NCBI GenBank assembly: GCA_964365575.1
Contig: CAYIQH010000001.1
Coordinates: forward strand, 1-29,924
Origin: an uncultured Planctomycetia bacterium
Lineage (GTDB): Bacteria; Omnitrophota; Gorgyraeia; JAHIPI01
Direction of reading: 5' to 3'
DNA: 29,924 bases
The notes under the pieces were generated by a model. That model had not been told where the DNA came from. It made no database searches and saw only the letters and a list, made by a program, of their open reading frames with translations. Numbering within the stretch: the first letter of the stretch is position 1; each line of letters begins with the position of its first letter. Of the stretch, positions 6,465-29,389 are shown in pieces. Position numbers and translations under genes: made by a program.

Positions 6465-6689
6465 CTAGCCTTTTGCGGGCTTCGCTGGCGCGGCCTTTTC
6501 GTACCTTTTCTTAAATTTGTCTACCATACCTGCGGAGTCAACGAGTTTCTGCTTACCCGTAAAAAACGGATGGCACTTGGAACATATATCAACCTTGATA
6601 TTATGCCTCGTTGCGCGCGTATGTATGACTTCGCCGCAGGCGCAGCTTATTGTCGTCTCCTTATACTCCGGATGTATCCCTTTCTTCAT
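6465..6689 (-). CDS. rpmE: 50S ribosomal protein L31, zinc-binding (C+) type
   Basis: [28 protein letters not shown]; four Zn-ligand cysteines. Confidence 0.97.
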
Positions 6690-8861: not shown

Positions 8862-11542
8862 TTCTCCGTTTCAAGCCAATTGCGTCCTTCGCCCATCCTG
8901 ACGAGAACCGGCACCTTCAGATCGAATACACCTTCCATCTCTGCCTTCACAACCTTTTTCAATTCGTCCGCTTCATTTTTTTTTGCTTCAAACACAAGTT
9001 CGTCATGAACCTGCAATATCATTTTGCTCTTGAAGCCCTTCTTTTCAAATTTGCGCCATATATTCAACATAGCTACTTTTATCAGGTCTGCCGCTGAACC
9101 CTGTATGGGCGTATTTATGGCGACCCTTTCGGCAAACTGTCGGATGTTGATATTAGGGCTGCTTATCTCCGGCACATACCGGCGCCTGTTGAGAATAGTC
9201 GTCACATACCCCTGTTTCCGCGCCGTTTCTATCGTCTCATCGAGATATGCTTTCACGCCGGGATAACGTTCAAAATAATTCTCAATGAATTTCTCCGCAT
9301 CGCCCACATTTATATCCAGATCTCGCGATAATCCGTACGGGCTCATGCCGTAGACTATTCCGAAATTGACGGTCTTGGCTTGTGATCTCATCTTTTTTGT
9401 GACATCTTTTTCTTTTACGCCAAAAACCAGAGAAGCGGTATACGTATGTATATCGTGGCCTTTCTTGAATGCTGTTATAAGATTTTTATCTCCGGAAAGA
9501 TGTGCCAGTATACGCAGCTCGATCTGTGAATAGTCAGCCGAAATAAGTATGTCCTTTTTGTCAAGCGGTACAAACGCCCTGCGCACCTCCCTGCCGATAT
9601 CTGTTTTGATAGGGATGTTTTGTAAATTCGGTTCGCTGCTTGAAAGCCGGCCCGTCGCTGTTACTGTCTGGTTGAATGATGTATGTATCCTTGATGTCTT
9701 CTGGTTTATAAGTTCCGGCAAAGCGTCTATGTAAGTAGATTTGAGTTTAGACAGAGTGCGGTATTCCAGGATGAGGCCGATAACAGGGTGGTTGGCCGCC
9801 AGTTTTTTCAGGACTGATTCGTCAGTCGATATGCCTGTCTTTGTCCGTTTTATAACCGGCAATTTTAATTTTTCAAATAGGACATTTGAAAGCTGTTGCG
9901 GCGAATTTATATTAAACTCGCATCCGGCCATTCCGTATATTTCTTTTGTCAGCCCCGCGAGCTCCCTATCCATATTTACGGACATCTCCGAAAGAAATTT
10001 TATGTCAATTGCTACACCCGCGAGTTCCATTTCGGCAAGGACTTCTACCAGCGGCATCTCTACGTCGTTAAAAAGTTTATCAAGGCCTTTTTCTTCCAGC
10101 ATCTTTTCGAAGATCAACATCACTCTCAGTGTGACATCCGCGTCTTCGCATGAATATTCTGATACTTTTTCCAGATCCACGTCTTCAAGGGTAATGGCGT
10201 TTTTGCCCTTGCCAATGAGATCGCTTATGGGAATAGTCTTATAACTCAGATATTCCATAGCGATGTCATCCAGATTATGATTCAGTTTTGACGGGTTAAG
10301 CAAATACGAAGCTATCATTGTATCAAAATATATACCTGCCAGCCTTATGCCCTGATTACGCAATATGACATATTCATATTTTATGTTTTGTCCTGTCTTC
10401 TTAATCCTGGGGTCTTCTAAAAGCGGGCGAAGCTCTTCAAGCGCCCAGGTTCGATCTATGTCGCTTGTCAAATCCTCCATCAGCACGGCTGACTCTCTAC
10501 GGAAGGCGACATAATAGGCCTCACCTTTTTTAAATGAAAACGATATGCCTATCGGCCGTGCGGCCATTGGGTCGGTGCCCGTAGTCTCGAAATCCAAGAC
10601 AAACATATCAGCCTTCTCCAGTTTTTTGAGCAGTTCCGTAAACGCCTTTCTGTATTTTATCAGATGATACTTTGAATCTAATGACGTCTGGGGCGCGTAT
10701 TCCTGAACCAGGTTACGGAACTCAAGGCGTTTAAATAACTCCAGAAGTTTTTCTGCATCCGGCTCTCTGATCTTCATTTTTTCAAGGTCTATATCAAGCG
10801 GTACCATGTCATCTAAAGTCGCGAGTTCCTTACTGAGCCGCGCCTTGTCGGCATGCTCTATTATTAAGCGCTTTCGCGCCTCTGATTGTATCTTTTCGGG
10901 ATTATCCAATATTGCGTCCAGGCTGTTAAATTCCTGTATCAAGGATACTGCCGTTTTTTCGCCGAAGCCCGGAACACCGGTTATATTGTCCGAAGCATCA
11001 CCCATTAACGCAAGCAGGTCAACGATCTTATCGGGGCCTACGCCGTAGCGCTCCTTTACTTTTTCGGTGTCGTACACAAGTCCCTCTTTATGCGTTGAAT
11101 ACACTTTTACATGCGCATCTACGAGCTGGAGCGCGTCCTTATCGCCTGTTACAATAAAAACATCAAGTGCTTTTCCTGATAACTTTCTCGTGAGTGTCGC
11201 AATTATATCGTCCGCCTCAAAGCCTTCTTTCTCAAAAATGGGTATACTATACGCCCTGACAACTTCTTTTATCACGGGCATCTGAGTAATCAGCGCATCG
11301 GGCATCGGCTTCCTATGTATCTTATATTCTTCATATTTTTTATGCCGAAACGTCGGGCCTTTCAGGTCAAACGCTATAGCGAGATACTCCGGTTTCTCGT
11401 CCTTAATGATCTTGCGGAGCATGGAGACAAAGCCGTAAACTGCGTTCGTCGGCTCACCAAATGAGTTAGCAAGCTCCTTTATTGCATAAAATGCCCGGTA
11501 GCAAAACGAATTTCCGTCAATTAGAAATAGTTTCATAATCAA
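8858..11542 (-). CDS. polA: DNA polymerase I (5' nuclease, 3'-5' exonuclease and polymerase domains)
   Basis: LIDGNSFCYRAFYA, FEADDIIAT, LMGDASDNITGVPG; Exo I DFETTG intact; QTVTATGRLSSSEPNLQNIP, ADYSQIELRILAH, AKTVNFGIVYG, LQVHDELVFE. Confidence 0.99.
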   Translation of the reverse strand: MIMKLFLIDGNSFCYRAFYAIKELANSFGEPTNAVYGFVSMLRKIIKDEKPEYLAIAFDLKGPTFRHKKYEEYKIHRKPMPDALITQMPVIKEVVRAYSIPIFEKEGFEADDIIATLTRKLSGKALDVFIVTGDKDALQLVDAHVKVYSTHKEGLVYDTEKVKERYGVGPDKIVDLLALMGDASDNITGVPGFGEKTAVSLIQEFNSLDAILDNPEKIQSEARKRLIIEHADKARLSKELATLDDMVPLDIDLEKMKIREPDAEKLLELFKRLEFRNLVQEYAPQTSLDSKYHLIKYRKAFTELLKKLEKADMFVLDFETTGTDPMAARPIGISFSFKKGEAYYVAFRRESAVLMEDLTSDIDRTWALEELRPLLEDPRIKKTGQNIKYEYVILRNQGIRLAGIYFDTMIASYLLNPSKLNHNLDDIAMEYLSYKTIPISDLIGKGKNAITLEDVDLEKVSEYSCEDADVTLRVMLIFEKMLEEKGLDKLFNDVEMPLVEVLAEMELAGVAIDIKFLSEMSVNMDRELAGLTKEIYGMAGCEFNINSPQQLSNVLFEKLKLPVIKRTKTGISTDESVLKKLAANHPVIGLILEYRTLSKLKSTYIDALPELINQKTSRIHTSFNQTVTATGRLSSSEPNLQNIPIKTDIGREVRRAFVPLDKKDILISADYSQIELRILAHLSGDKNLITAFKKGHDIHTYTASLVFGVKEKDVTKKMRSQAKTVNFGIVYGMSPYGLSRDLDINVGDAEKFIENYFERYPGVKAYLDETIETARKQGYVTTILNRRRYVPEISSPNINIRQFAERVAINTPIQGSAADLIKVAMLNIWRKFEKKGFKSKMILQVHDELVFEAKKNEADELKKVVKAEMEGVFDLKVPVLVRMGEGRNWLETEK

Positions 11543-12357
11543 TACTTCCGCTTAATAAATTCCAGCCAGCGTTTCTCAAGGTCGCTCACGCCGTTCTTAT
11601 ACTTCCACTGATACGCATTGTTCAGTGCTTCATCCCGTGACTGGCCGTTTTTAAGGAACGTCAGGAATTTACCGAACGACGTCCGTATGTTATCTGTAAT
11701 AAGATGATCTACTACGCTCGCAGATTCCGTATAAAAGAGATCTACATTATCTTCGGGCACCTGCGGCATATTCATTAACTCAGCAAGCCGTATGTAGGAA
11801 CCGTCTTTCACGCTCATCTTTACAAACCTCTTCCGCTTATATAAGGAGCTCTGGTCATCTTCCTCAAACTGCGCCATTCCCTCTTCAAGCCATAGCGGCA
11901 TTCTTTTGCGATCCGTAAACAGGCGGAAAATGATGTGCGTCAGTTCGTGGGGAAATGTCGTCGTAGCCAGATCCGGTGAACCTTCGTAAGCAGAAAACCG
12001 GAGCGGGCTATCTTGCGCCAATCCCGCAGACCATTCCGGCGCGCCTGTGGCTTTGAGGTATTCGGCCTTTGTATTATACAGGTATATTTCGCATTTATCC
12101 TTACCTTCCCACGGCCGGAATTCCGCGCTGCCCAAATGGCCTAATATTTTTTTGTAATAATATTCAGCCTTCCACGTAAGATCATTTGCCAGATCCTTAT
12201 TATGGTGATAAATTACGAAATGCCCTCTTTCCAGTTTTTCAAATTCCGCCGCTCCGGAGGTAGGCCCCGCAAAAAAGGCCGACAAAAGCACAACCACTGC
12301 TATTCTAAGGCATAACTTTGTATACATTGAAATATCCGTTGTTATAGACAAGTTCAA
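11539..12357 (-). CDS. Secreted peptidase MA-like (gluzincin) metallohydrolase, paralog 2
   Basis: HELTH followed by [11 protein letters not shown] (HEXXH plus downstream E zinc ligand) and [10 protein letters not shown]; N-terminal hydrophobic signal. Likely start ATG 12327. Confidence 0.8.
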
Positions 12358-14215
12358 AATGTTTAAGGCTCGGCTTTGTAAATCCGGCGCTCATAGTCCC
12401 GCTGAATTGGCGGCCGGAATGCGCAAACTTGAAATCCTGGCTGTCCGGAGGAAGTGCCTCAAGAATAAATCCTATGTCATCTTTATCTACTTCCATATGC
12501 GCCGTTATATAACGCCAGCTTGAGCGGCCGCCCGCAAGATACGTTCCATGAGGAAATACGAAATAGGCCGCGCCCCACTCTCTGCACAGATTAAATAACG
12601 GATCCTCGCCTTTAGTAAATAGCGTCTCCGCCCACTGCATAGTCTTGTCGCGAATCTCTTTGGATTCCAGTTTTGCATGCAGGTTTACCGCACGCCCCGT
12701 ATATGCCAGAATTTCCGGAGAGTAACGCGGCGGGGCCAGTATTACATCACTCTTTTCGGTGTTGGTTTCTATCCAGTTCAAAAGATCAACGATATACACG
12801 GTATCGCCGATATACGCGCTTGCGCGCGAAACTGCCGCTGCTTGCAACGCTATCACTCCGATAATAAATACTGCGGAAAGCGACTTCCATAATCTCTGCC
12901 GGCCTGTCCTGAGCAAAGTCGAAGGAGGGATCACTATCAATCCGCCCGCCCAGATTGCAATAAGAAATATAGTAAATACCATTACCCTGTTCACAAATAG
13001 ATATAAAACACCGAAGGCGATGAGCAGGTACAATAAAAGATCTATACCATCTTCGGAATAGCTTTTATTTCGGAATGATTTTATAGCAATGTTCAGGATA
13101 AGCGGCAAACCGAGTATCAGCGCCGGCAAAAAATAAGTTACTGCCTCATTTAAAGGCGGAGCACTATGCGCTACATCCCACAACATCCTGCTGTCCGACG
13201 ATAAGAGATTGGGATTAAACGGCTTTTGGCCCATGAACCTGAGCGAATCTATGCCCAGCGAATATACATGATAATATATTCCGAAATGTTTAGATAAAAA
13301 CGAAAAGCCGGCTATAAGAAGAAAGGCTGATGCGATAAATATAACCGCGCGTACGCCTTTATTTATTACGTATCTTTTTACACAGAAAACCGGTAATATC
13401 GCAAAACCTAAAAGCATCGGGGAAGATACCAAAAATGGTATTTCGCGTAAATACGGAATAACTATTCCTGCCGCGGCTGATGATACCATAAGCGCAATGT
13501 ATTGCACGAAAGTATCACGCTTGTCAAACAAGATGGCACGATACGCTATAAACACAAGTGCTATCATGAGGTAGAACTGCGTAAAGTGCCATGCTGCAAG
13601 GGCAATAAACATACATATGCCCGAAAGAATGCTGTAAATATAAACTCTTCGCGAGGAGCATGTTTCGTCTTCGGCAAATGCCATAAAAAGCATATTGCCG
13701 AAAATAAACGGCAGCGCAAACGCCTCTTTAAGAAACCCGAGCCCAATCGTTCTGTTTACCGCTGCCGGAGTCACCGTATAAAAGATAGCAGCCAGTATAG
13801 CCGCAAATCTGTCCTTTGTTATATGCAGTGTAAGCGCATATACGATAAAAAGCGGAATAAGCCCGAATATCATTACAAAATTCCGTACAAATGCGTCGAA
13901 ATCCGTTCCACGGCCGAGTGCCCTGTATAGATATCCGACAAAATACTCCATTACGACGGATTCCTTGCGGAATACCTCAAACCCTTCCGGATACTGGATC
14001 TTATAGCAGACCGCCGGTATCTTTTCGCCCTTCGCGACCAAATCGGCAAAATAATAATGGAATGCATTTATATTCGTAAATGGGGTAAAGGGCCCTATGG
14101 AGCTTCTTTTATAAACATCGGCTCTCAGAAGAAAGCCCAGAATGAATATAAGCGCCAGTATTATTATACTATTTTTTAAGGAATTTGAGCCAGGCATCGT
14201 TAAGCTGCGACACAT
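12305..14215 (-). CDS. Polytopic GT-C glycosyltransferase, STT3/AglB- or DPY19-like
   Basis: About a dozen hydrophobic segments. First external loop NAFHYYF...IQYPEG resembles STT3 EL1; [16 protein letters not shown] and AWHFTQF resemble DPY19 motifs as recalled; C-terminal soluble domain [29 protein letters not shown]. Start may be 14197. Confidence 0.7.
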
Positions 14216-14966
14216 CTTTCAATCGAGGGTAATACGTAGAATAAAGCGCCTCATTGATATTTTTGCCTCCAGAAACCATTTTCTTTGAAAAAGAGGTAAA
14301 CTTCGCTCCGCCATATTCGGAAAGCAAAAAATCCACCAGGCTTGCCGATTCGGCATAAAAAAGGCTATTAATTTTCAGATCTGCGGGATAACTGCTATAT
14401 TTAACGATCTCGGTTGCAGGTATCAGAACGCCTTTTGCCAGCGCTACTTTAACATGCGCCTTATAATCATCGGATCTTTCTTCGTAAGTCGCCATGCCTT
14501 CGTTAAGCCAAAGCGGCACGCGGGCATCTACTTTTAACCCGGCTACGATCTCTTTGAATAGTAAGTGCGTAATCTCATGGGGAAGCACTTCGTCCAAAAG
14601 ATTATTACTCAGGAAGCTGTAGATCTCAGCGGGTTTTCGTGCGGATCTTGGAACTGCGATTCCACCTGTATTGGCAGCATTATAGCCGAGTCTCTTAAGA
14701 TTGTCAAGATAATCTTGATAACTGCCAAAAATATAGACACGCGGCTTCTTCTTGAGCATACTGCCTGATTCAAGGTCATTGAGAAACCGGCTGTAATACT
14801 CCTCCAGGCCGGCTGCGACAGTTTCGGCATCTTTCTGAGCAGGCGCCCATACCGCAAAATTCATGGTATTCGCATGTCCCTTTAAGATTCCGAAAGGGGT
14901 ATCATCGGCCGATCCGCACGATGCTAATGATATTAAGAATGCGAGAAAAAGCAAGGCGAGATTCAT
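14169..14966 (-). CDS. Peptidase MA-like (gluzincin) lipoprotein, paralog 1
   Basis: Lipobox LASC; HEITH...[11 protein letters not shown]; [13 protein letters not shown] is clearly homologous to 11539-12357. Confidence 0.8.
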
Positions 14967-14977
14967 AGGAGGATAGT

Positions 14978-15310
14978 TTAATTGCCCTTGTCTTTTTTGA
15001 TGAGTTTAACGGCAGTACCCGAACCATACAGATATCCGAATCCGCTGTAATAAGTAATGCCGATTACATAGTCAGCGCCCAGATCTTCGGCCTGTCTTTT
15101 TAGTTCGTTGTTTATCTTGTCGGGCATGGTTTCACTGCTTCTGTAAGAGACGACACCCAAAACATCATAATCAACTTTTAAATCAACGGTAGATAATACG
15201 ACCCCGGCCGCCCCTTTCTTGGTTGTATCTTTACCATCGTAACCGAAGGCACAGGAAAGAGAAAAAGCCGTAAACAATATGCTCATCAAAAAGTAAAATA
15301 TTTTTGTCAT
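14978..15310 (-). CDS. Exported YbjQ-like (heavy-metal-binding-domain family) small protein
   Basis: Signal peptide, then DYDVLGVV...ELKRQAEDLGADYVIGI...YGSGTAVKL, the typical YbjQ/UPF0145 pattern. Confidence 0.7.
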   Translation of the reverse strand: MTKIFYFLMSILFTAFSLSCAFGYDGKDTTKKGAAGVVLSTVDLKVDYDVLGVVSYRSSETMPDKINNELKRQAEDLGADYVIGITYYSGFGYLYGSGTAVKLIKKDKGN

Positions 15311-16449
15311 TGCTTTACCTCCTCCCCCTGCGTATCAATAAGGGTGGCTGTCAGCACTACAATTAGATTCTTCTTTTCTCTATTCCGGTATTCGTATTTA
15401 AAAATCGGGCCTATGAGCGGAAGGTCGCCTAAGATCGGGATTTTCCTCTTCACGGTGCCGTCATCAGCGTCCTGTATTAATCCGCCAATCAGGATTGAAT
15501 CGCCGCTCCGGATCATGACCGATGTCTGGGCTGTTCGCGTATCGATAATAGGCCACCCAAGATTAGCGGGAAAATTGGTGGTAGGGTTAGCAGTCAATGC
15601 AATCTGCTGACTAAGCTTTGTGACTTCGGGATGAATGTCTAATGTTATTATGTCACTGCCTTCCATCACAGTGGGCGTAACTTCGAGCGTTACCCCCACT
15701 ATTTCTTCTTCAACTTTATAAGTCTCAACATTAACATAATCTGTTTCAGTAACTCCGAGTAGCGTCGTCGATCCGATTTCAACCTGCGTAGTTTCCACAG
15801 ACGTAGCGTACGGAAAACTCCTTACAACCTGCAGGTTGGCCATCTGGCCGGACAAGGTCGTCACTTTTGGAGCGTGAATAAGATTAGCTTTTCCTTTCTG
15901 CGCAAGCATTTTAAGATAAGCTATCAGTTCAGACCCGTGATAAGCAGCTTTACTTATTAACAACCCTAACCCGGCCGTACTGGCAGCCTGAGCGAATTGA
16001 GCGGCTGTGCTGGCCGTTCCCATAAGGCCAACCACGCTACTTGTCTGGCCCGTAATAAAATTAATACTATGCGGACTGAAGATAGCCGGCTCGTCATGGT
16101 GGAGCAAATCCCAGTCCACCCCCATCTCATCCAGGTCTGTGAAAGTTATCTCCACAAATTTGGCCTCTATCTGGATCTGTTTCGGCCCCACATCCCATTC
16201 CCGTATAAGTTTAAGGGCAAGTTCCTGATTTGACGGCGTATCAGTAATAGTGAGAAGTCCTGATATCTCATCGAGCATTACCTTTCTGCCATCCTGAGGC
16301 GGCAGGTTAGTCTCCAGATATTGCTTGATCGTATATTTCGACAGGTCTTCGTTTTTGTCCTGTGCGAAAGTAAACGCCGTTGCGTAAAAATTCAGAATCC
16401 CGAAGATAAGTGTTATTTTGACAAATTTTCGCATTAATTTACATTCCAT
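15307..16449 (-). CDS. Secretin core (GspD/PilQ family), N3 remnant plus secretin domain, paralog B
   Basis: Own signal peptide (...ATAFTFA-QD); GLLTITDTPSN, PKQIQIEAKFVEI, APKVTTLSGQMA, GVTLEVTP, ITLDIHPEV, LIGGLIQ, KIPILGDLPLIGPIFK, NLIVVLTATLI. Confidence 0.9.
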   Translation of the reverse strand: MECKLMRKFVKITLIFGILNFYATAFTFAQDKNEDLSKYTIKQYLETNLPPQDGRKVMLDEISGLLTITDTPSNQELALKLIREWDVGPKQIQIEAKFVEITFTDLDEMGVDWDLLHHDEPAIFSPHSINFITGQTSSVVGLMGTASTAAQFAQAASTAGLGLLISKAAYHGSELIAYLKMLAQKGKANLIHAPKVTTLSGQMANLQVVRSFPYATSVETTQVEIGSTTLLGVTETDYVNVETYKVEEEIVGVTLEVTPTVMEGSDIITLDIHPEVTKLSQQIALTANPTTNFPANLGWPIIDTRTAQTSVMIRSGDSILIGGLIQDADDGTVKRKIPILGDLPLIGPIFKYEYRNREKKNLIVVLTATLIDTQGEEVKQ

Positions 16450-16457
16450 AATAAAGA

Positions 16458-17603
16458 TTACCTTGTCGCGGCCGGCGGCTCAGCCGCTTTACCTTCGGCC
16501 GTTATCAGCGTCGCCGTTAAAAATATTACGAGGTTCTTCTTTGTCCTGTCTTTATTCTTATACTTAAACAGCTCCCCTATTAACGGTATGTCCCCCAAAA
16601 TAGGGATCTTTTTGTCTGTCGTCTGGTCATCATCCTGAATAAACCCGCCCATTATAACGGTTGAGCCGCTCGTTACCATAACGCTCGTCTGGGCTGTCCT
16701 TGTATCAATGACAGGCCATCCCAACAGCGCAGGCACGCCCATGCCGAATGTTATGGGGTTTGCCGCCGCAGTGGTCGCTCCTTGAAAAATAGGCCTTCTG
16801 GCCTTAAGATTACTCACTTCGGGATGAATGTCCAGCGTTATCACATCGCTGTTACCTGTAACATACGGCGTGACCTCAAGCGTTATACCGGTAATCTTTT
16901 CCTCAATAGTATAGTCAAACTTCCAGATGGGATGCTCCGCCGTGCCGCTATTTTCAAAAGTAACATCACTTACGTAGGGTATGGTCTGCGTTACCTGAAT
17001 ATTTGCCTGCTGGCCTGATAAAGTCGTAACTTTTGGAGCGGATAGCAAATTAGCCCTGTTCTCGGCCGCGAGGGCATGAAGATATGCTTCTATAAAATTC
17101 TTCTTTGACCAATCTGCTATGATCGCGATATCCAGGCCGCGGTTGGTCTGAGGAAATGTATCGGTCGTGGTATCATCCCATATAATATTCCGATAGTCTG
17201 GCATATTCTGGGGGATTCTCTGATTATTCTGAGAAAGTGTGGTATCGACGCTGCCGATATTAATATCGCCGCGCTCGTACAAAAACCATTCAATCCCGAG
17301 TTCATCCAGATCCTCAAATTCAATCTCCACAAACTTCGCTTCTATCATGATCTGTTTCGGCCCTATATCAAACTGCCTGACTAGCTTTTGTATAAGGCGC
17401 TGGTTTGAGGGTGTATCGGTTACTGTCAGTATACCCGTGGCATCGCTGTAATTTATAGAGCGGCCCTCCTGAGGAGGAAGCGCGTCGTTCAGGTACTCTT
17501 CTATTGAAAGCGAGTATTCAGGACTGGCTTCCTGGGCCGAGACCAAGAGATTAGTGGCTGTCATGATTCCAACAGCAAAAATTATCGCCCCCATTATCCG
17601 CAT
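16458..17603 (-). CDS. Secretin core (GspD/PilQ family), N3 remnant plus secretin domain, paralog A
   Basis: Own signal peptide (...LLVSA-QE); GILTVTDTPSN, PKQIMIEAKFVEI, LLSAPKVTTLSGQQA, GITLEVTP, IMGGFIQ, KIPILGDIPLIGELFK, NLVIFLTATLI. Confidence 0.9.
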   Translation of the reverse strand: MRIMGAIIFAVGIMTATNLLVSAQEASPEYSLSIEEYLNDALPPQEGRSINYSDATGILTVTDTPSNQRLIQKLVRQFDIGPKQIMIEAKFVEIEFEDLDELGIEWFLYERGDINIGSVDTTLSQNNQRIPQNMPDYRNIIWDDTTTDTFPQTNRGLDIAIIADWSKKNFIEAYLHALAAENRANLLSAPKVTTLSGQQANIQVTQTIPYVSDVTFENSGTAEHPIWKFDYTIEEKITGITLEVTPYVTGNSDVITLDIHPEVSNLKARRPIFQGATTAAANPITFGMGVPALLGWPVIDTRTAQTSVMVTSGSTVIMGGFIQDDDQTTDKKIPILGDIPLIGELFKYKNKDRTKKNLVIFLTATLITAEGKAAEPPAATR

Positions 17604-17618
17604 ATTTACTCCAAGCTA

Positions 17619-18734
17619 TTACGAGCCGCTGTCACTGCTGGATTTAGTCTCAAATTCTTTAAGCCCTACCTTCCTTACCCGTCTGACGCCATATTTCAGG
17701 CGGTAGGTCCTTGTCACAAGATTTTCTTTTGCCAGTTTTTCGGGAGTAGAGATCCATATATAATTCGGCTCGACTCTGTAACTCAAGTCTGTCGCTCTTA
17801 GCGCGATATTAAGGACTTCCAAAAGCGGCAGCTCGTTTACCGTGCTGAATGTTATTTTGAGCGGAGTACCCTCACCGGCTTTTGCTAACGCGCCCTCATC
17901 AATTACGATAGTCACGCCCGTGATCTCCATAAGCTGCCGTATTACATCGCGTATATCGGCTTCGGCCAGGCTCACAGCCGGCACCATCTTTTCAGAAAGC
18001 TTTTTCATAAGCGCCTGCCTTGCCTTTTCTTCCCTTTCTTCTTCCGGCGATACAATCTCTTCGATCTCTACGGGTTTTCGTTCAGGTTTTACCGGCGGCA
18101 GATATGCCTTTTCAACTTCTAGCATAGCCGTCTTTTCCTGAACTGTTTTTTCCTGCGTTGCTAAATCCGTATCCTTGTCCAGGTCTTTCTGGTCCGCCCT
18201 TGCCTTATCCATGCCGCCCTGTCGCCGCGCCCTCTTGAGCCATTCCAGAATATCCTCATTCTCATAATCCAGCACCAGTGCATTTTGGAAATCCAGAATA
18301 GCGCCGTCAAAATCCTTGGCGCGGTATTTTTCCTGTCCGCTTTTCAATAATTTCTTTGCCATTACGGACGGCGATTCTATCTTCTGACGCTCCCCCGTCT
18401 TGACCTGCACACTTTTAAGGCCCCGCTTTGCGTCCGCGCTATTGGAATCTATCTCCAGCGCCCGCGAGAACTGTTCGGTTGCTGCGTCATAGTTTCCGGC
18501 TTCCAAAAAACCTTTGCCCTCGTCTATGAAATACTTCAGCATAGACTTTTCTTTCTCTTTCTCTATCCTTTTCTCGGAAATCATAAGATCGGCTGCTTTC
18601 TTGGCGTCATCGGCAGCATTAGCATTGGATTGGGTTACAAAAAGAAGTATAAGAGCCGTATAAAAGAGCGATATCGCGCGTCTCTTTTGAATCTTTGTGG
18701 TTGGCATAGACATCTCCGTATTTATTATATGCAA
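17619..18734 (-). CDS. Exported TPR + coiled-coil + STN/N0-like protein (stand-alone secretin N-module)
   Basis: Signal peptide; two TPR blocks (GNYDAATEQFSRALEIDSNS, KDFDGAILDFQNALVLDYEN); STN-like VSLAEADIRDVIRQLMEITGVTIVID...LPLLEVLNIALRATDLSYRVEPNYIWIS; ends TRTYRLKYG...KSSSDSGS. Likely start about 18707. Confidence 0.75.
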   Translation of the reverse strand: MHIINTEMSMPTTKIQKRRAISLFYTALILLFVTQSNANAADDAKKAADLMISEKRIEKEKEKSMLKYFIDEGKGFLEAGNYDAATEQFSRALEIDSNSADAKRGLKSVQVKTGERQKIESPSVMAKKLLKSGQEKYRAKDFDGAILDFQNALVLDYENEDILEWLKRARRQGGMDKARADQKDLDKDTDLATQEKTVQEKTAMLEVEKAYLPPVKPERKPVEIEEIVSPEEEREEKARQALMKKLSEKMVPAVSLAEADIRDVIRQLMEITGVTIVIDEGALAKAGEGTPLKITFSTVNELPLLEVLNIALRATDLSYRVEPNYIWISTPEKLAKENLVTRTYRLKYGVRRVRKVGLKEFETKSSSDSGS

Positions 18735-18735
18735 A

Positions 18736-19488
18736 TTATTTGGTTAATTTTATTTCTGAGCCCTTTGAAAGTAATATAACACAATCGGGCTGAATGTCAA
18801 TCACTTTATAATCGTCTATTACGCCTGCTATCTCGACATTAAACGTTTTCTTTGATATATTATCATACAGCAAAGCGCTTAATTTGTCGCTCAATACCGG
18901 CTTGTTAAGCAGAAAATTTATTTTGCGGCCCTCGGCATCTATCGCCTCAATCCTGTCCTTTGCGACCCTCTGTATCTTGTAGCCGTTTAATGCCCCTCCG
19001 TCTTCAACAAATTTGGTAGTGTCCTTCCAGTTTATCTGCCCGATGAGTTTGTCGGGCATCTCTATGTAACCTTTGTACATAATCGGGAGCGGGACATATC
19101 CTATCGACCGCAGGACAAAATCATGCGCAGTAACCGAAACGACACCTACGGGCGCAACTTCAGGATTATATTTTGCGAACGGGTCACGCTTTACACCTTT
19201 TGCATATGCGTCTTTGGATTCCGGGTATTCGGCTCCTTTAAGAATTCCCTCATATTTTTTTATTTCCTCAAGGCTGACGGAGGGCGATATGCGCATACTC
19301 GTAGCCGTCTCGGATATCTTCTTTTCTATGCTGTCGCGGGTACTCTTAACTGCCTTAAGCCCCACTACGGCAAGAAGCGTCACGACCCATATTGCAATGA
19401 GTGTCTTTAAAACCATCTTTTCAATATTGCTCTTGGGAAGAAGATCTGCTATCTTCTTTATGGCATCCGTTATTTTGGGAACCCTCAT
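18736..19488 (-). CDS. PilP/GspC-like bitopic protein
   Basis: N-terminal TM, RDPF motif, then beta-rich YKGYIE...GYKIQRVAKDRIEAI and a second similar segment DYKVIDIQPDCVIL; sits between the PilO-like gene and the secretin genes. Confidence 0.55.
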   Translation of the reverse strand: MRVPKITDAIKKIADLLPKSNIEKMVLKTLIAIWVVTLLAVVGLKAVKSTRDSIEKKISETATSMRISPSVSLEEIKKYEGILKGAEYPESKDAYAKGVKRDPFAKYNPEVAPVGVVSVTAHDFVLRSIGYVPLPIMYKGYIEMPDKLIGQINWKDTTKFVEDGGALNGYKIQRVAKDRIEAIDAEGRKINFLLNKPVLSDKLSALLYDNISKKTFNVEIAGVIDDYKVIDIQPDCVILLSKGSEIKLTK

Positions 19489-19509
19489 ACTTTAACCGCC
19501 CCTCGACCG

Positions 19510-20352
19510 CTAATTGATTAATTCTGCCTTAACCAGAAATGCGGCCTGAAGCCTGCTCTCCGCAGCCTGGTCCTTATCAAGCACATCCTTGGTCTTATTA
19601 ATATCAAGATCGTCCACGACGAAAATAAACGGCGAGACTTTCAGCCGGTACAGAAAATCCATCAACTTTGAATATGTGCAGGTGATCTTAAATGAAACAG
19701 CTATCTCTTCGTAAATTTTTGTTTTTCCCGGCTCGGGCGGAAGAGGCAGCGCCTCAGCTATGTTTCCGGCATTAGGCATAGGCGGCATAACCTGCGCATG
19801 GGCTTCTTCCTTTTTAACGTCTTCTCCGATAAAACTTATTTCATCGAGCGAAACCACGCCGGTAAGCGTCATCAGGTATATCAGCTCTTCCAGCACTTTG
19901 AGTCTCTTTATGAGATATGGTATTTCCATAGAGTCAGAGAGTTCTGTTTCGTATTTCGTAAACCCCAGTGAGTCGGGCAGGCCCAGAGAAAAATCCTTTG
20001 CCTCTTCGCGCAATTTTTTCTGCGTCTGTATCAGCTTCTCCTTGAACTGCAGCGAATCCATGCTCTCGGGCGGCACTTCTTCGCTGAGCGGTGACGCATG
20101 CGCTAGTTTCAATCTGCTGTATGCACTCTTGAGCTTGTTCCGTTCGTCCTCAAGAAAAGACAACGAATTCTCAGTAAGTGGCATCTTACTTTTCTTGACA
20201 AATCCGTCTATCGTCCCGCTTGTCGTCATTATCTCTTTGCCTATCTTCGCATCCTGAAGCATGAAAAAGACGAACAAGCCGATAGCAAACACGAGCGCCG
20301 CTGCCAGTATGCCTATAACAACCACTGAAAACAGGTTTCTCTTAAGTATCAC
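19510..20352 (-). CDS. PilO-like / Amuc_1100-family protein
   Basis: N-terminal TM and coiled coil, LQFKEKL...SLGFTKYETE...LKVLEELI, ferredoxin-like end ITCTYSKLMDFLYRL...FIFVVDDLDI; follows PilMN. Confidence 0.7.
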   Translation of the reverse strand: MILKRNLFSVVVIGILAAALVFAIGLFVFFMLQDAKIGKEIMTTSGTIDGFVKKSKMPLTENSLSFLEDERNKLKSAYSRLKLAHASPLSEEVPPESMDSLQFKEKLIQTQKKLREEAKDFSLGLPDSLGFTKYETELSDSMEIPYLIKRLKVLEELIYLMTLTGVVSLDEISFIGEDVKKEEAHAQVMPPMPNAGNIAEALPLPPEPGKTKIYEEIAVSFKITCTYSKLMDFLYRLKVSPFIFVVDDLDINKTKDVLDKDQAAESRLQAAFLVKAELIN

Positions 20353-21616
20353 TCTTGCCTCTCTTATCCGGAGGAACTATTTTCATTTTTATCGTGAATG
20401 CGCGTATATCTTCGGTTGACTCCTTATCCTTCAGCACATTTGCGGACTCAATTTTTACATCCGTGAAATACCCGGATTTTATCAGCATATCCTTGAAGGT
20501 GTTTATATTCTCAAATGTGCCTTCGGTCTTGCCGTTCACAGCAATATTATCTCCGTCCCGGCTTATCTCCGTAAGCCAGAGATTATCCGGCAGGATCTTC
20601 ATCATTTCCGCAATCACCCTGATCGCCTCGTCGCGTTTAGTCGAAACTTTTTCTATGAATTCCAGGCGTGCCTTCAAATCGCCCACTTCGGCCTGAAGGC
20701 TCTCTATCTCCTTATTGAAGCTTGTATACCGGTCTATGAGTGCGGATGTCTTCATAAGGCTTCTGGTCTTATCCCGGCTGCCCCACATCATAAAATGCGC
20801 CAAAGTCGCAAAAATACATATAACTACGATCAGCGATCCGAATATATACCATCTTTTTTTCTCAAACTCTTTGGATTTCAGTATCTCTCTCGGGAGAAGG
20901 TTTGTCTTAGTGCAAAGGGGCGTGACTGTCTTTAGCGCAAGCCCTATAGCGGCATCCATCCTTCTCGCCAAATTTTCCGTGGGGTGGAAATCTATATCGC
21001 TCTTTATCTTATCAAATATATTTGCCGGCCTTGTGGGTATATCGAGGTTTTCATGTATAAACCTGTCCATATTTTTGATCTTGGAAGCACCGCCCGTAAG
21101 AAGAACGTCCTTTATCACTTTAGTCTCGCCAAACTGCGACTTATAATAACCAATGGACTTTGATATGTCGCCCAGCATCTCTATCAGGACCGGATTTATC
21201 GCGTCTGATATGTCGGCGGCGTGCGGCGACAGCGTTCGCTCCTCGGAATCCATGGCGATTATGCCTTCTTTCCTCTTAATCTGCTCCGCCTCTTTAAAGC
21301 TGATCTTAAGATGCGCTGCTATGGCTTTCGTAAGGTCATTACCCCCTATGAGTATGCTTCGGGTCCATATCTTATGCTCCTCCACTATTATGATATTGGT
21401 GTTCTTTGCGCCAATATCAAGTATGAGCTTGTCTTTAATCTCTCCCACGAAGTCCAGGGCATTAAAAATTGAAAAATAGGAGACTTCAACGAAATCAGTT
21501 TCAAGGGGCGTATCCGCGAGCAGTTTCAGTTTTTCCTCTACTATATCTTTTTTCACAGCTACCAGAATTACATCCGTTTCCGGGCTGTCATACGCTTCAA
21601 AGACTCCGTAACTCAT
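20342..21616 (-). CDS. PilM C-terminal part fused to PilN (second piece of an apparently frameshifted pilM-pilN gene)
   Basis: VILVAVKK, LILDIGAKNTNI, IGGNDLTKAI, EAEQIK, ISKSIGYY, LLTGGAS (actin-like ATPase motifs), TNLLP, a TM segment, then PilN-like LPDNLWLTEI. Confidence 0.85.
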   Translation of the reverse strand: MSYGVFEAYDSPETDVILVAVKKDIVEEKLKLLADTPLETDFVEVSYFSIFNALDFVGEIKDKLILDIGAKNTNIIIVEEHKIWTRSILIGGNDLTKAIAAHLKISFKEAEQIKRKEGIIAMDSEERTLSPHAADISDAINPVLIEMLGDISKSIGYYKSQFGETKVIKDVLLTGGASKIKNMDRFIHENLDIPTRPANIFDKIKSDIDFHPTENLARRMDAAIGLALKTVTPLCTKTNLLPREILKSKEFEKKRWYIFGSLIVVICIFATLAHFMMWGSRDKTRSLMKTSALIDRYTSFNKEIESLQAEVGDLKARLEFIEKVSTKRDEAIRVIAEMMKILPDNLWLTEISRDGDNIAVNGKTEGTFENINTFKDMLIKSGYFTDVKIESANVLKDKESTEDIRAFTIKMKIVPPDKRGKSDT

Positions 21617-21972
21617 ATTACTTCATTAATGGGAAACGGCACCTGAAGCTGGGCTTCGTATTGGATGATTTGCTCGATTTTGCTTTTGGCTATCTTGGGG
21701 ATTTTTAGGAATCGTATGAAGACCGACTGGCTGGGGATGGAGAGCGCTACGCTGCCGGAATCTATCTGCTCCTCCGCAAGAAGTTTCTTGAGCTTGTCTT
21801 TGATAATGCTGGTTCTTTTCTCGGGATCGTCAAATGCGGGGTCTATGTCAAGCTCAATAAGGCAGCCTTTAGAGAGATGGTACCCATCGCGCGTCTTTTT
21901 AACTTCTACAAGCTTTATAGCGCTTTCGCCTATGTCAATTCCGAAATATCTTTTGCTCTTAAAATTCAACAT
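21613..21972 (-). CDS. pilM: PilM N-terminal fragment
   Basis: FGIDIGESAIKLVEV, VALSIPSQSVFIR, QIIQYEAQLQVPFPINEVI; stops exactly where the conserved W-x-Y is expected. Confidence 0.88.
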   Translation of the reverse strand: MLNFKSKRYFGIDIGESAIKLVEVKKTRDGYHLSKGCLIELDIDPAFDDPEKRTSIIKDKLKKLLAEEQIDSGSVALSIPSQSVFIRFLKIPKIAKSKIEQIIQYEAQLQVPFPINEVI

Positions 21973-21995
21973 TCAATATCTCGTGCTATTTTTTA

Positions 21996-22217
21996 TTAGA
22001 TTTTTTTGCTGCGCCTGGGAACGGCGTTTACCGTCTGCGACTTAAGCCATCTGTCTATGGAACTCCTGTCAAAGCGCCAGACGTGGCCTACTTTTATGCC
22101 GCTGATCTTCTTCTCGTGAAGCCAGTTGTAAATTGTCTGCTTCTCGAGTTTCAGGTACTCAGCCAGTTCCTCTATGCTCATCAGTTGCGTCATACTTACC
22201 CCCTCTGCATCACGCAT
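21996..22217 (-). CDS. Excisionase-family (HTH_17, MerR-like/BldC-like) DNA-binding protein
   Basis: LMSIEELAEYLKLEKQTIYNW...ISGIKVGHVWRFDRSSIDRWL. Probable true start is ATG 22193 (SD GAGGGG). Confidence 0.88.
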   Translation of the reverse strand: MRDAEGVSMTQLMSIEELAEYLKLEKQTIYNWLHEKKISGIKVGHVWRFDRSSIDRWLKSQTVNAVPRRSKKI

Positions 22218-22248
22218 ATGTAAACTTACTTACTCTTACTTATAACAA

Positions 22249-22277
22249 AGTATACATGTATATTCTTACTGTGTCAA
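22249..22277 (-). promoter_or_regulatory. Sigma70-type promoter for the HTH-pilM-secretin operon
   Basis: Minus strand TTGACA (22277-22272), 17-nt spacer, TATACT (22254-22249); overlapped by the perfect palindrome TATACATGTATA (22251-22262). Confidence 0.75.
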
Positions 22278-22321: not shown

Positions 22322-23473
22322 CTAAGGCAGGTGCGCTTCCATGTAATATATTTTCTGCGGACTCGAGGTAGAATATACAATCCGCGGCACATCGGATTTA
22401 TCCAGGCAGATTGACAGGCTGTCTAACTTGTCTTCGTAATAAACCGCAGGTATCTTCTGAAAAAACCACCTGATGCCGTCTTTAGCCCCGTAATACAAAT
22501 GCGGCTCTTCGAACACAGCTACATGCAGCCTGTCTCTGGAATCTATTGCGAGCGATACCCTGATTCGCTTATTTAGGTCTATTTTTTTGATCTTTTCGTA
22601 CATCCAGATACCGTTACTTCGCCTGGCAATGAAAAGATATGACTGATCGCGCACATTACCGGATAGCGCGCAATAGAGGACATTGCGCTTATCAAATTGC
22701 GCGGTACCATTCGGGTCTTCCAGCATACTGAAATTCTTATCAAGCTTTTCAAACTGCCACCCCATCGCCCCTTTATAATAATGTCTGACTCCGCCGAATT
22801 TTTGCTCGGTCATGATGTGCGGCGACGGGCTTGGGCCATGTGTAACAGCTATTGTGGCAGCTGCGGTATACATGCCATACATTTTGATATCAATAATACC
22901 AAGGCCCTCTGCCGGCCGCCATACTCCGTCATTTTTAAACCGGTAATTAATCTGCAGCCCTTTAGGCTCCAATACATTATTCCAGTAACAAACATGCGGG
23001 ATATTGTAGTCGTCAACTGCTACAGATTCGTAATTACCTGTCCATGGGCCCTGCATCTGACTCTCTATCCATTTGTCGCCCTCTTTGGTTACATACCAGA
23101 CGCCCTGCCCCCACTTAGTCGCAAACGCTATCTGGACATTCCCGTCAGTACCTATAAAAATTGAAGTTTCCGCGCATGGATTGGGCTTAGAGGCAACTCC
23201 CGTTATATGCCAACTATTCTCCTCTTTGCGCACATAATAAATTGAGGTAGAGGTTGTAGTGGCATGATAATCCTGCCCGTAACAAATATGGATAGTGCCG
23301 CTCTCGTCTATTGCTGCAGATGGATTAACGCCGCTTGCCACTTCCTCAATAGTCCATCTGTATGGCGAAAATTCGGCAAAGGCAGAATTAGATTGCGAAA
23401 AAGCCAGGTTTATTATGCTGAATATCACGAATAGGCGCGGGTAAAAGAAGGTAAATATGTTGCAGTTTCTCAA
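22322..23473 (-). CDS. Secreted beta-propeller-like hypothetical protein
   Basis: Signal peptide ending AFA; repeated blades such as SAAIDESGTIHICY, SVAVDDYNIPHVCY, SLAIDSRDRLHVAV, SICLDKSDVPRIVY; TTG start with GGTGG SD. Confidence 0.6.
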   Translation of the reverse strand: MRNCNIFTFFYPRLFVIFSIINLAFSQSNSAFAEFSPYRWTIEEVASGVNPSAAIDESGTIHICYGQDYHATTTSTSIYYVRKEENSWHITGVASKPNPCAETSIFIGTDGNVQIAFATKWGQGVWYVTKEGDKWIESQMQGPWTGNYESVAVDDYNIPHVCYWNNVLEPKGLQINYRFKNDGVWRPAEGLGIIDIKMYGMYTAAATIAVTHGPSPSPHIMTEQKFGGVRHYYKGAMGWQFEKLDKNFSMLEDPNGTAQFDKRNVLYCALSGNVRDQSYLFIARRSNGIWMYEKIKKIDLNKRIRVSLAIDSRDRLHVAVFEEPHLYYGAKDGIRWFFQKIPAVYYEDKLDSLSICLDKSDVPRIVYSTSSPQKIYYMEAHLP

Positions 23474-23636
23474 AGGACATCACCACCTTTGAACAACATG
23501 CTTTCGTCAATATAAGTATATCACATGAATGCAGTTTTTGGTAGATGGCCTACTCATTTCAGCAAGTACCCTTTTATGTCCTCTTTCTGAAACAGGTATA
23601 CATGATTATTATTGCCTTGTCGAGGGGGCGCAGTTT

Positions 23637-24308
23637 TTATGCAAGTAACCTTTGAGCCAGGCGGTGTAATTCCGGGTTTGCCAGCGCGAGAGCTTTTTTC
23701 TTTACAACCCTTGAAAAATACTCCTTCTCGGTTTTAGTCATCCTCTCCCGCCTCAGCTTCTTTAAAAATAGCTCCTTCTGCTTAGCAGAAAAAACCTGTG
23801 ATAGCGAATATTCCAGGCCAAGTTCGTCTTTGACGGAAAGCAGTTCATTCAGTTTTGCCTGCGTCTGGCTTAAAAAGTAGCTGCTGAAAACCGCCTTTAG
23901 CCGCTGCGTAGACACTTTGTGTCCCGCGGGATTTAAATCGTCATCTTTTTTGAGTTTTTTAAGGAAATCAGCGTATTCTTTTTTGCTTTTATTTACAAGC
24001 AATTTGTATAATCGGCCTGCCCACGGGAATTTTAGATTGGAAAACTTATAAAGGGCCAATGACATTGCCAGAAGCGAGGCTAAGGTTAATCTGTCGGGTC
24101 GTTTCGTTAAGTGCTGATTAAGGTTATGGTAATCGAACAATCCTCTCTCCGCGCTATTAGCCAGCACTACCGGAAAGCCCTCCCATAAGCGCAACTCTTT
24201 CGATTTGACCATATCTGCCAATGTTAAATTCGCGTCATAGTCTTCCTCTGCATCAAAAAGCGGTAATCCTAATGCGCCTACTCTTTTGAAAAGCGTATCA
24301 TTTTTCAC
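23637..24308 (-). CDS. Hypothetical partner of the nucleotidyltransferase (putative antitoxin with a C-terminal HTH-like basic region)
   Basis: The ORF track gives 23637-24476. A GTG at 24308 with GAGG upstream overlaps the upstream stop and is more plausible (about 223 aa: MKNDTLFKRVGALGLPLF...FSAKQKELFLKKLRRERMTKTEKEYFSRVVKKK). Confidence 0.6.
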   Translation of the reverse strand: MKNDTLFKRVGALGLPLFDAEEDYDANLTLADMVKSKELRLWEGFPVVLANSAERGLFDYHNLNQHLTKRPDRLTLASLLAMSLALYKFSNLKFPWAGRLYKLLVNKSKKEYADFLKKLKKDDDLNPAGHKVSTQRLKAVFSSYFLSQTQAKLNELLSVKDELGLEYSLSQVFSAKQKELFLKKLRRERMTKTEKEYFSRVVKKKALALANPELHRLAQRLLA

Positions 24309-24888
24309 CCAATAACCTCTCTTTTTTAGCCATATTGATAAAGCTATCGAATTGTTTATTAACTCTGTCTTCTGAAATATCAAAGGCAGCCGTTTCCCTG
24401 AAGCGGGATACCAATCGTCTAAAATCAATTTCGGCCCGCCTGCTTTTGAGCAATAAAAGACAATCATCAATATCAACTGTTGTCGCTCTGAATATCTTGC
24501 TTATGATGATATCATAATAATTGAGTATGCCGATATAAATACGGCTGAATTCTTTAACCGGCATGTTATTGCCTTTTTGTAACGGTGATTCAAGCAATTC
24601 CGTAGTATGTATTGCCTTACCTTTAAACAGGTCAAAAATAAATCCGCCGTCTTTCCCCCAACCTGCTCCAGTTGCCGCTTTATACCCCAACTGGCTTAGG
24701 ATGACGGTAAGATATTTGTATTCATCTATATTTGGCACCAGCAGATCAACATCTTTCGTTGACGGTTTTATGCCTAATAGTGTCAAGGCCGTCCCCCCGC
24801 AGGCAATCAGATGCACTTTCTTTTTGAGAAAGCTGTCCCACCCGCTGATAATGTCCAGCAACCATTCTTTATTTATCCTATATTCCAT
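24298..24888 (-). CDS. DUF6036-like / AbiEii-superfamily nucleotidyltransferase
   Basis: LIACGGTALTLLGIKPSTKDVDLLV matches the GG...T-x-D-x-D pol-beta-type NTase signature; DIIISKIFRA...DIDDCLLL. Confidence 0.75.
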   Translation of the reverse strand: MEYRINKEWLLDIISGWDSFLKKKVHLIACGGTALTLLGIKPSTKDVDLLVPNIDEYKYLTVILSQLGYKAATGAGWGKDGGFIFDLFKGKAIHTTELLESPLQKGNNMPVKEFSRIYIGILNYYDIIISKIFRATTVDIDDCLLLLKSRRAEIDFRRLVSRFRETAAFDISEDRVNKQFDSFINMAKKERLLGEK

Positions 24889-24927
24889 ACAATTTCTTGT
24901 ATTAATTTATACAATTACTTGCACTAA

Positions 24928-24956
24928 AGTATACAATATTTATTTGAATTTGTCAA
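24928..24956 (-). promoter_or_regulatory. Sigma70-type promoter of the NTase module
   Basis: Minus strand TTGACA (24956-24951), 17 nt, TATACT (24933-24928), 40 nt upstream of ATG 24888. Confidence 0.75.
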
Positions 24957-25109
24957 GGGTATCGGCAGGTAAGCTATGGTAGGGTGGCACTTTATAGGAT
25001 GTCACCGTATTCTACGTAGCCTATAGGCAAATTAATTCGAAACTGAGAACGACTTGATGGATACTTTCGGCAGGTAGGTTATGGTGACGTCTTCTTAGTG
25101 GACAAGCTT

Positions 25110-29388: not shown

Positions 29389-29389
29389 G

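Follow-up and report, generated by a model that had tools for sequence, protein, structure and literature searches.

The window analysed here, 29,924 nucleotides long, is the whole of contig C1 from a 773-kb metagenome-assembled genome (MAG; 67 contigs, 58% complete; label G000). Named relatives of this MAG are Candidatus Omnitrophota, in agreement with an earlier, sequence-only reading of the DNA. Every gene in the window lies on the minus strand. Between positions 22277 and 11539 these genes encode, in order: a small helix-turn-helix (HTH) protein; a PilM-PilN fusion; PilO-like and PilP-like proteins; a tetratricopeptide repeat (TPR) protein with an N0 domain; two secretins, A and B; a YbjQ-fold protein; and a tail consisting of a peptidase, a DPY19-family glycosyltransferase and a second peptidase. 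The region probably specifies the periplasmic and outer-membrane half of a type IV filament machine, kin to type IV pili and type II secretion systems and of the type found in the Planctomycetes-Verrucomicrobia-Chlamydiae (PVC) bacteria, together with an optional enzyme tail. Two features remain striking: a conserved secretin encoded by three genes, and a bacterial DPY19-type glycosyltransferase whose gene, accompanied by exported proteases, was found only behind that secretin. (Below, related genomes carry G-numbers, metagenome loci or contigs L-numbers, and contigs C-numbers.)

A conserved core

Domain and fold assignments bear out the gene list of the sequence-only reading, with all genes on the minus strand where it had placed them. 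Its claim of tight packing (gaps of at most 24 nt, or overlaps) likewise stands: the listed genes are separated by 23 nt or less, or overlap. The core, running from PilMN through the PilO-like, PilP-like, TPR and N0, secretin A and secretin B genes to the YbjQ-like gene, keeps the same order in 20 related genomes and on metagenome locus L037. The 20 genomes represent at least nine families, and the core is incomplete only where a contig ends.

A secretin in three genes

The free TPR protein (17619..18734, minus strand; 371 aa) is exported. It matches TPR_11, STN and GspD N0 profiles, and positions 156-370 of the Amuc_1098 family profile; judged by these matches, it is the N-terminal module of a secretin, encoded apart from the pore. 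Free genes of this kind, with reading frames of 366-451 aa, are present in 26 of the 201 genomes sampled across the class.

The pore is encoded twice. Secretin A (16458..17603, minus strand; about 380 aa; PF00263 E value 1.5e-45) consists of a signal peptide, one N domain and the secretin domain. It lacks both N0 and S domains, and aligns with residues 294-571 of GspD (5wln). Secretin B (15307..16449, minus strand; about 380 aa; PF00263 E value 8.7e-38) is a paralogue with the same minimal layout, colinear with A and 44% identical to it. No further secretins were detected in the 58%-complete genome.

Both secretins, each with its own signal peptide, are present in all 19 genomes compared, and their orthologues have diverged to a similar extent (mean identity 50% for A and 48% for B). 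At least 90% of the 19 orthologues of secretin A keep the motif N218..TA..PIW227; the corresponding part of secretin B varies and is longer. Maximum-likelihood analysis placed the first copies from the split clade in one group (support 95/94), apart from the second copies, which indicates that the duplication is older than these families. Constant retention and similar divergence fit non-redundant roles for the two proteins; a mixed ring and two separate rings are both compatible with the sequences.

More distant families have two tandem secretins, of which the first combines TPR, STN and secretin domains in one fused chain (768-1493 aa) and the second keeps its own STN domain. The fusion is colinear with the window's TPR and N0 protein followed by secretin A. 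This colinearity reveals a gene fission in the window's clade, where both cores are without N0. (A partial Secretin_N match, positions 14-69, was considered as a sign of a gene break within the domain; the fused homologues match just as partially, at 10-69 and 13-69, so it is evidence neither way.) A third arrangement occupies the same locus in the distant lineage represented by L049: a 690-aa TPR/STN protein, a 364-aa minimal secretin, a 685-aa fusion of TPR, STN and secretin domains, an 80-aa open reading frame (ORF), and a TPR-fused Dpy19 protein.

Directly behind secretin B lies the gene for an exported 110-aa protein (14978..15310, minus strand). Its AlphaFold2 model (mean predicted local distance difference test score, pLDDT, 84) has the YbjQ/DUF74 fold: Foldseek matched it to 3qkb (E value 1.9e-5), 1y2i (8.8e-5) and RcsF (2y1b; 4.5e-4), with TM scores of 0.50-0.58. 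At the sequence level, no PF01906 match was obtained at an E value below 0.01. The gene is 3' of secretin B in every relative examined. It goes with the split type, and was not found 3' of secretin pairs of the fused type.

A literature search on tandem or heteromeric secretins, on Omnitrophota secretins or pili, and on bacterial DPY19 proteins returned nothing relevant.

Pilins and motors on other contigs

The 29.9-kb window contains no prepilin motif and no T2SSE match, and no T2SSF/PilC match was found among its scanned ORFs. Contig C8 of the same MAG encodes such components: two HTH_17 ORFs, an AIRC-like protein, two long PilB/GspE ATPases, PilT, PilC and five pilins. The pilins comprise one GspG-like protein, three others (one of them GspJ-like) and the N-terminal half of a giant minor pilin resembling GspK or PilX. 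Both long ATPases exceed the GspE equivalog cut-off (647.7 versus 630.25 bits), and one carries the MshEN motif, which binds cyclic di-GMP. Between them lies the PilT-family ATPase (454 bits; cut-off 319). A second set, on contig C54, comprises PilB, PilC, two pilins and a canonical PilM.

Contig C8 terminates inside the GspK-like gene. The full-length version of this gene lies directly 5' of the HTH-pilMN pair in G006 and G001. In G002 and G025 the whole block, from ATPases to pilins, immediately precedes pilMN and has the same orientation; in the stretches examined from G006, G122, G097, G180, G142, G051 and G067, the pilin genes of the block are directly upstream of pilMN or of the HTH-pilMN pair, again with no change of strand. 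The sequence-only reading was correct that the window has no pilin, PilB, PilT or PilC gene. This is not a property of the machine, however, given the set on C8 and the contiguity of the block with pilMN in at least nine relatives. The apparent lack of pilins and motor ATPases is an artefact of viewing one contig.

Inner-membrane and periplasmic components

In type IVa pili (T4aP) and type II secretion systems (T2SS), the PilM, PilN, PilO-type and PilP proteins link the PilC/ATPase platform to the secretin. The window encodes counterparts of PilM, PilN and PilP, and a candidate for the PilO-type partner.

PilM and PilN are fused in a protein of about 543 aa (20342..21972, minus strand; PF11104 and PF05137). 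The assembly presents this gene as two ORFs of 119 and 424 aa that overlap at ATGA. PF11104 matches both pieces (E values 4.4e-13 and 3.4e-24), and PF05137 (PilN) matches with an E value of 3.2e-11. The pieces together span the family profiles without loss: positions 1-109 and 122-339 of PilM_2, and positions 4-116 and 119-525 of the Amuc_1101 family. Relatives read PFPINEVIWSYG (NEVIWSYG) at the junction, whereas the window reads NEVI, a stop and then MSYG, with the G of the Trp codon absent. The missing base belongs at 21613/21614, as a C after plus-strand position 21613. It is present in all four Logan contigs recovered (three metagenome runs from two studies), and the contig from run X1 is otherwise identical to the window. 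Moreover, pilMN is a single ORF of 528-610 aa in every relative with a complete gene. Natural fission into ATGA-coupled pilM and pilN genes is ruled out by these relatives and by the read-derived contigs that carry the base; the split is an assembly artefact, a deletion of one nucleotide.

The next protein (19510..20352, minus strand) is bitopic and resembles PilO, GspM and Amuc_1100. It matches T2SSM_b (E value 3.2e-6), as well as the Amuc_1100 family (2.1e-15) and GspM (1.9e-7), both below the curated NCBIfam cut-offs. The Pfam scan of window proteins gave it no PilO match; its orthologue on L037 matches PF28028 (Amuc_1100).

The PilP/GspC-like protein (18736..19488, minus strand; 250 aa) has no Pfam matches. 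It is anchored by an N-terminal membrane helix, without a lipobox, and continues into an HR domain and a second beta domain. Its AlphaFold2 model exceeds a pLDDT of 90 across residues 121-250. With VIA-align, the HR domain (residues ~131-197) superposes on its counterpart in GspC (3oss_C) with a Z score of 9.5 and on PilP structures with 8.1-9.3; the best-scoring unrelated fold reached 3.9.

Promoters and operon limits

A sigma-70-type promoter, TTGACA-17-TATACT with TG before the −10 hexamer, precedes the first gene (22249..22277, minus strand; 11 of 12 consensus positions). Its hexamers, with the TG-extended −10, are kept 5' of the HTH gene in six loci: the window, G006, G002, G001, G007 and L037. 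Just 3' of the −10 hexamer are direct repeats of AGTAAG (22225..22240, minus strand), one match in the window against a chance expectation of 0.03; an additional GTAAG lies within the promoter spacer. Repeats of the AAGTAA(G) type flank the HTH promoter in all six loci compared. The gene itself (21996..22193, minus strand) encodes a 65-aa DNA-binding protein of the HTH_17/excisionase family (PF12728 E value 2.7e-16; TIGR01764 57.9 bits, cut-off 28.8). It is immediately 5' of pilMN in G006, G002, G001, G007 and L037. The AGTAAG repeats are probably the operator of this protein. Two more small HTH_17 genes stand ahead of the ATPase/pilin block (contig C8, 10424-10803; locus L010, 1425-1801); each half of the gene set for the machine thus begins with small HTH proteins of the excisionase type.

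The downstream limit is less distinct. The sequence-only reading had one promoter serve an operon complete at 11539. The upstream promoter has good support from its conservation, but a single promoter claims too much: there is a second consensus site, TTGACA-17-TATAAT (14679..14707, minus strand; 12 of 12 positions), within the first peptidase gene and 5' of the glycosyltransferase gene. Both of its hexamers are retained in G006 and G002 despite a diverged spacer. This promoter-like site may drive the glycosyltransferase gene, the second peptidase gene and polA-coaE-rho. Nor is the operon complete at 11539: the last peptidase gene shares 4 nt with polA, which in turn shares 4 nt with coaE, and coaE and rho have 14 nt in common. 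No convincing terminator was found at 11539, and the first true gap comes only 3' of rho, before rpmE. (The rpmE gene, for the 74-aa ribosomal protein L31, occupies 6465-6689 on the minus strand, in an apparent gap between rho and prfA.) The continuation into polA-coaE-rho and the internal consensus promoter make the 3' end of the operon arbitrary.

An optional enzyme tail

The first tail gene (14169..14966, minus strand) encodes a gluzincin of the Peptidase_MA_2 family, here MA1 (PF13485 E value 1.2e-16). MA1 is a predicted lipoprotein (LASC lipobox) with HEITH at residue 130, followed by NEGMATYEE with the downstream Glu ligand. The third tail gene (11539..12357, minus strand; probable start 12327) encodes a second such enzyme, MA2 (E value 2.9e-13), which has a signal peptide, HELTH at residue 137, and EEGMAQFEE with the downstream Glu ligand. 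Both peptidases score above the PF13485 cut-off, with the HEXXH+E signature and export signals intact.

Between them lies the gene for a DPY19-family GT-C glycosyltransferase (12305..14215, minus strand; probable start 14197; PF10034 90.4 bits, cut-off 27.2). The database copy of the protein is 630 aa long. Searches of the PDB with single sequences in phmmer gave no matches for the glycosyltransferase or for MA1. Only a profile of seven glycosyltransferase orthologues reached Caenorhabditis elegans DPY-19 (7zlg), with an E value of 1.2e-15 over profile positions 108-541. QYPEG (E77) and E90 are invariant in the seven orthologues. The catalytic acid of C. elegans DPY19 is Glu71, and the eukaryotic acceptor sequon is WxxW/C (PMC10154233); the alignment begins at residue 171 of the 7zlg chain, so the Glu71 region lies outside it.

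The tail was surveyed in 21 genomes, including the window, in which the region 3' of the YbjQ-like gene is readable. The arrangement MA1-Dpy19-MA2 is shared by the window, G006, G004 and G002. G005 has an MA1 relic and then Dpy19; G007 has Dpy19-Dpy19-MA2; and G033 has Dpy19, an S8 protease, a small ORF and a giant TIG protein. Seven genomes have only MA peptidase genes (G012, G032, G161, G122, G051, G097 and G067), and MA2 is the commonest tail gene among relatives. Another seven (G001; G003, with an MA1 relic; G025; G180; G142; G145; and G038) have no tail before the next housekeeping gene, which is polA in five of them and was not identified in G038. By count, peptidase genes are present in 14 of the 21, DPY19 in 7, and neither in 6 (G001, G003, G025, G180, G142 and G145). 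The two MA1 relics, between the YbjQ-like gene and the next gene (G005:C46:5000-5137 and G003:C77:4783-4902), retain 52-53% identity over ~40-46 aa; a TAA stop is present in one of them. Thus the tail is optional and has been lost repeatedly. To call its enzymes "dedicated", as the sequence-only reading did, is an overstatement, but the linkage it assumed is sound: tail genes adjoin the operon wherever they occur.

Does the tail work with the machine? It may instead be a syntenic passenger, caught between the secretin operon and polA and concerned with general envelope maintenance; we consider this rather unlikely. In its favour, the genes stay just as closely packed, overlaps included, through polA, coaE and rho. 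These three follow the operon in almost all relatives, and such stable synteny makes adjacency alone weak functional evidence. The tail-less genomes, the relics in G003 and G005, and the conserved consensus promoter inside the MA1 gene also favour a passenger. So do the homologues of each enzyme: Peptidase_MA_2 proteins are encoded at other sites in 31 of 41 genomes, and more distant Dpy19-like proteins are plentiful in metagenomes (1397 cluster representatives at an E value of at most 0.001), the genes examined lying in ordinary glycan-synthesis surroundings.

Against a passenger stands the behaviour of the DPY19 subfamily itself, which was never found away from the secretin locus. Of the 201 genomes of the class, 7 carry its gene, always directly 3' of the YbjQ-like gene, whereas all 14 control genomes lack it, and it lies behind secretins on all three metagenome contigs that carry it (L037, L040 and L049). 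In G033 and L040 the link to polA is broken; Dpy19 nevertheless stays 3' of the YbjQ-like gene, with an S8 protease and a giant PKD/TIG protein next to it. An exported protease recurs beside DPY19, drawn from two unrelated families.

Relation to known machines

Among the closest known relatives is the pili-like cluster Amuc_1098-Amuc_1102 of Akkermansia muciniphila (PMC5332112; NF042912, NF038287, NF045709), which shares the PilM-PilN fusion, the Amuc_1100-like protein and the TPR, N0 and secretin domains in the same order. The sequence-only reading drew this parallel for the front half of the operon, and the NCBIfam models for Amuc_1101, Amuc_1100 and Amuc_1098 do all match. The scores fall far below the equivalog cut-offs, however (197.2 versus 650 bits; 56.9 versus 180; and 54.8 and 159.6 versus 750), as befits relatives that are not members. 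Moreover, the Akkermansia secretin is one chain, in place of three genes, and the HTH gene, the YbjQ-fold gene and the enzyme tail are additional here.

The PilMNOPQ locus of T4aP (Pseudomonas aeruginosa, Myxococcus xanthus; 3jc8) shares the order of PilM, PilN, PilO-like, PilP-like and secretin genes; the HR domain scores Z 9.3 to PilP of 3jc8. As in T4aP, the genes for PilB, PilT, PilC and pilins form a transcription unit of their own. There are also differences. PilM and PilN make up one fused chain. In place of a lipid anchor, the PilP-like protein carries a membrane helix and a second beta domain. Compared with PilQ, the secretin lacks AMIN domains, has its N0 domain on a free TPR protein, and has its core in two copies (TIGR02515 163 versus 284 bits).

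With GspC and GspD of T2SS (3oss, 6hcg), the region shares the HR fold (Z 9.5) and the N0 domain; the secretin cores score best on GspD. The pairing of HR fold and N0 domain suggests a docking contact of the GspC-GspD type. Unlike in T2SS, N0 and pore are separate polypeptides, the N1, N2 and S domains are missing, and a PilT ATPase is present.

The gene set therefore mixes traits: PilT and PilM-PilN on one side, and GspE-, GspG-, GspJ-, GspK-, GspM- and GspC-like features on the other. Could it be mainly a type II-like secretion machine? The MA peptidases here, and the S8 protease and giant TIG/PKD protein in G033 and L040, would then be cargo, not enzymes that modify the machine. (As a surface lipoprotein, MA1 would then resemble the cargo pullulanase PulA.) The GspG-, GspJ- and GspK-like pseudopilins are consistent with this, as are the GspE-level scores of both long ATPases, the GspM-like and GspC-HR-like parts, and the best score of secretin A on GspD. 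The lipobox of MA1 and the signal peptide of MA2 would suit cargo, and different exported proteases occupy the same position in different lineages. But a PilT-family retraction ATPase, scoring above its cut-off, lies within the same cluster, and classical T2SS lack one; PilM-PilN stands in place of GspL; and the T2SS equivalog cut-offs are missed by GspD (196.6 versus 351 bits), GspM (30.9 versus 60) and GspG (45.1 versus 88.9). This assignment would seem unlikely.

The self-contained trans-envelope machine of the sequence-only reading, working without pilin or motor ATPase, is extremely improbable: the 29.9-kb window indeed has no pilin motif and no T2SSE or T2SSF gene, but pilins and motors are encoded on C8 and C54, C8 breaks off within the gene that adjoins HTH-pilMN on its 5' side in G006 and G001, the two halves are contiguous in nine relatives, and PilM, PilN, PilO and PilP are not known to function apart from a PilC/ATPase platform.

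The single proteins of the distal part have their own comparisons. The 110-aa protein resembles YbjQ/DUF74 proteins (3qkb, 1y2i, 1vr4) and RcsF (2y1b) in fold, over the Foldseek range of 1.9e-5 to 4.5e-4; YbjQ is cytoplasmic, whereas the window's protein carries a signal peptide and is linked with the secretin pair. The glycosyltransferase shares with eukaryotic DPY19 Trp C-mannosyltransferases (7zlg; PMC10154233) the Pfam Dpy19 domain and the segments LRE(N/S)FA(L/F)PFI and W(H/Q)FTQF. It differs in being bacterial, in being encoded behind a secretin operon, and in having candidate acceptors without WxxW/C.

A further comparison comes from pilus loci. TfpW, a GT-C enzyme encoded in the group IV pilin loci of P. 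aeruginosa, glycosylates pilin in a reaction that depends on a polyprenyl-phosphate sugar. The likeness is that of a GT-C gene beside type IV pilus genes; TfpW belongs to a different GT-C family, and its gene adjoins the pilin gene rather than a secretin.

The proposed machine

The following scheme is suggested for the type IV filament machine. The HTH protein would regulate the operon, probably including its own promoter. PilM-PilN and the PilO-like protein would connect the PilC/ATPase platform with the PilP-like protein, whose HR domain would dock on the N0 domain, as GspC does on GspD (3oss). The N0 protein would join non-covalently to the pore of secretin A, secretin B or both. More speculatively, the YbjQ-fold protein may help in assembly or in the ring, as an accessory found only with the split secretin; the GT-C enzyme may move a sugar from a polyprenyl-phosphate donor onto a pilin, another component of the machine or an exported protein encoded nearby; and the two zinc peptidases may be exported partners or cargo.

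Several observations weigh against a filament machine with this tail. The tail is absent in 6 of the 21 genomes surveyed and decayed to relics in two. A prepilin peptidase (PF01478) was looked for and not detected, although in a genome only 58% complete this does not show absence. The WxxW/C sequon occurs in none of the operon proteins or the C8 and C54 pilins, and no ORF in the whole assembly has three or more WxxW motifs; the eukaryotic acceptor rule (PMC10154233) is thus not obviously applicable.

Finally, the pilin/ATPase block is unjoined to the window in this assembly, and the 7.6 kb upstream of the promoter hold unrelated genes, with GC content falling to 0.37-0.40. This stretch (22322-29924) is non-syntenic with relatives, in which the GspK-like minor pilin gene sits there. 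It encodes a 383-aa exported protein, a 279-aa protein, a DUF6036 nucleotidyltransferase, a GH2-like hydrolase, and a 1093-aa protein with immunoglobulin-like and carbohydrate-binding modules. It may be an inserted island; the mismatch reflects either insertion or rearrangement, or a matter of assembly. No homologues were found of the C-terminal half of the GspK-like gene, or of the window's upstream genes in relatives, so the join between C8 and the window was not reconstructed.

A bolder proposal combines both striking features: a DPY19-family enzyme would add sugar to a pilin, to another component or to an exported neighbour protein of a bacterial type IV filament machine, whose pore would be built from three gene products (the TPR and N0 adaptor and two secretin paralogues), with the YbjQ-fold protein possibly a fourth. 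In full, this is doubtful, and we advance it only tentatively.

Implications

The window illustrates how an absence seen at the level of one contig, here of pilins and motors, can mislead in a fragmented MAG. To our knowledge, every secretin solved so far is a ring of one protein. With a separate docking-module gene and two diverged pore paralogues conserved across at least eight to nine families, a ring made from unlike parts becomes a testable question. The DPY19 family is known so far only as a eukaryotic tryptophan C-mannosyltransferase; this locus gives the first hint, from gene context, of what a bacterial glycosyltransferase of the DPY19 type does. If the combined proposal is true, it would provide both the first function assigned to a bacterial DPY19 and the first hetero-oligomeric secretin.

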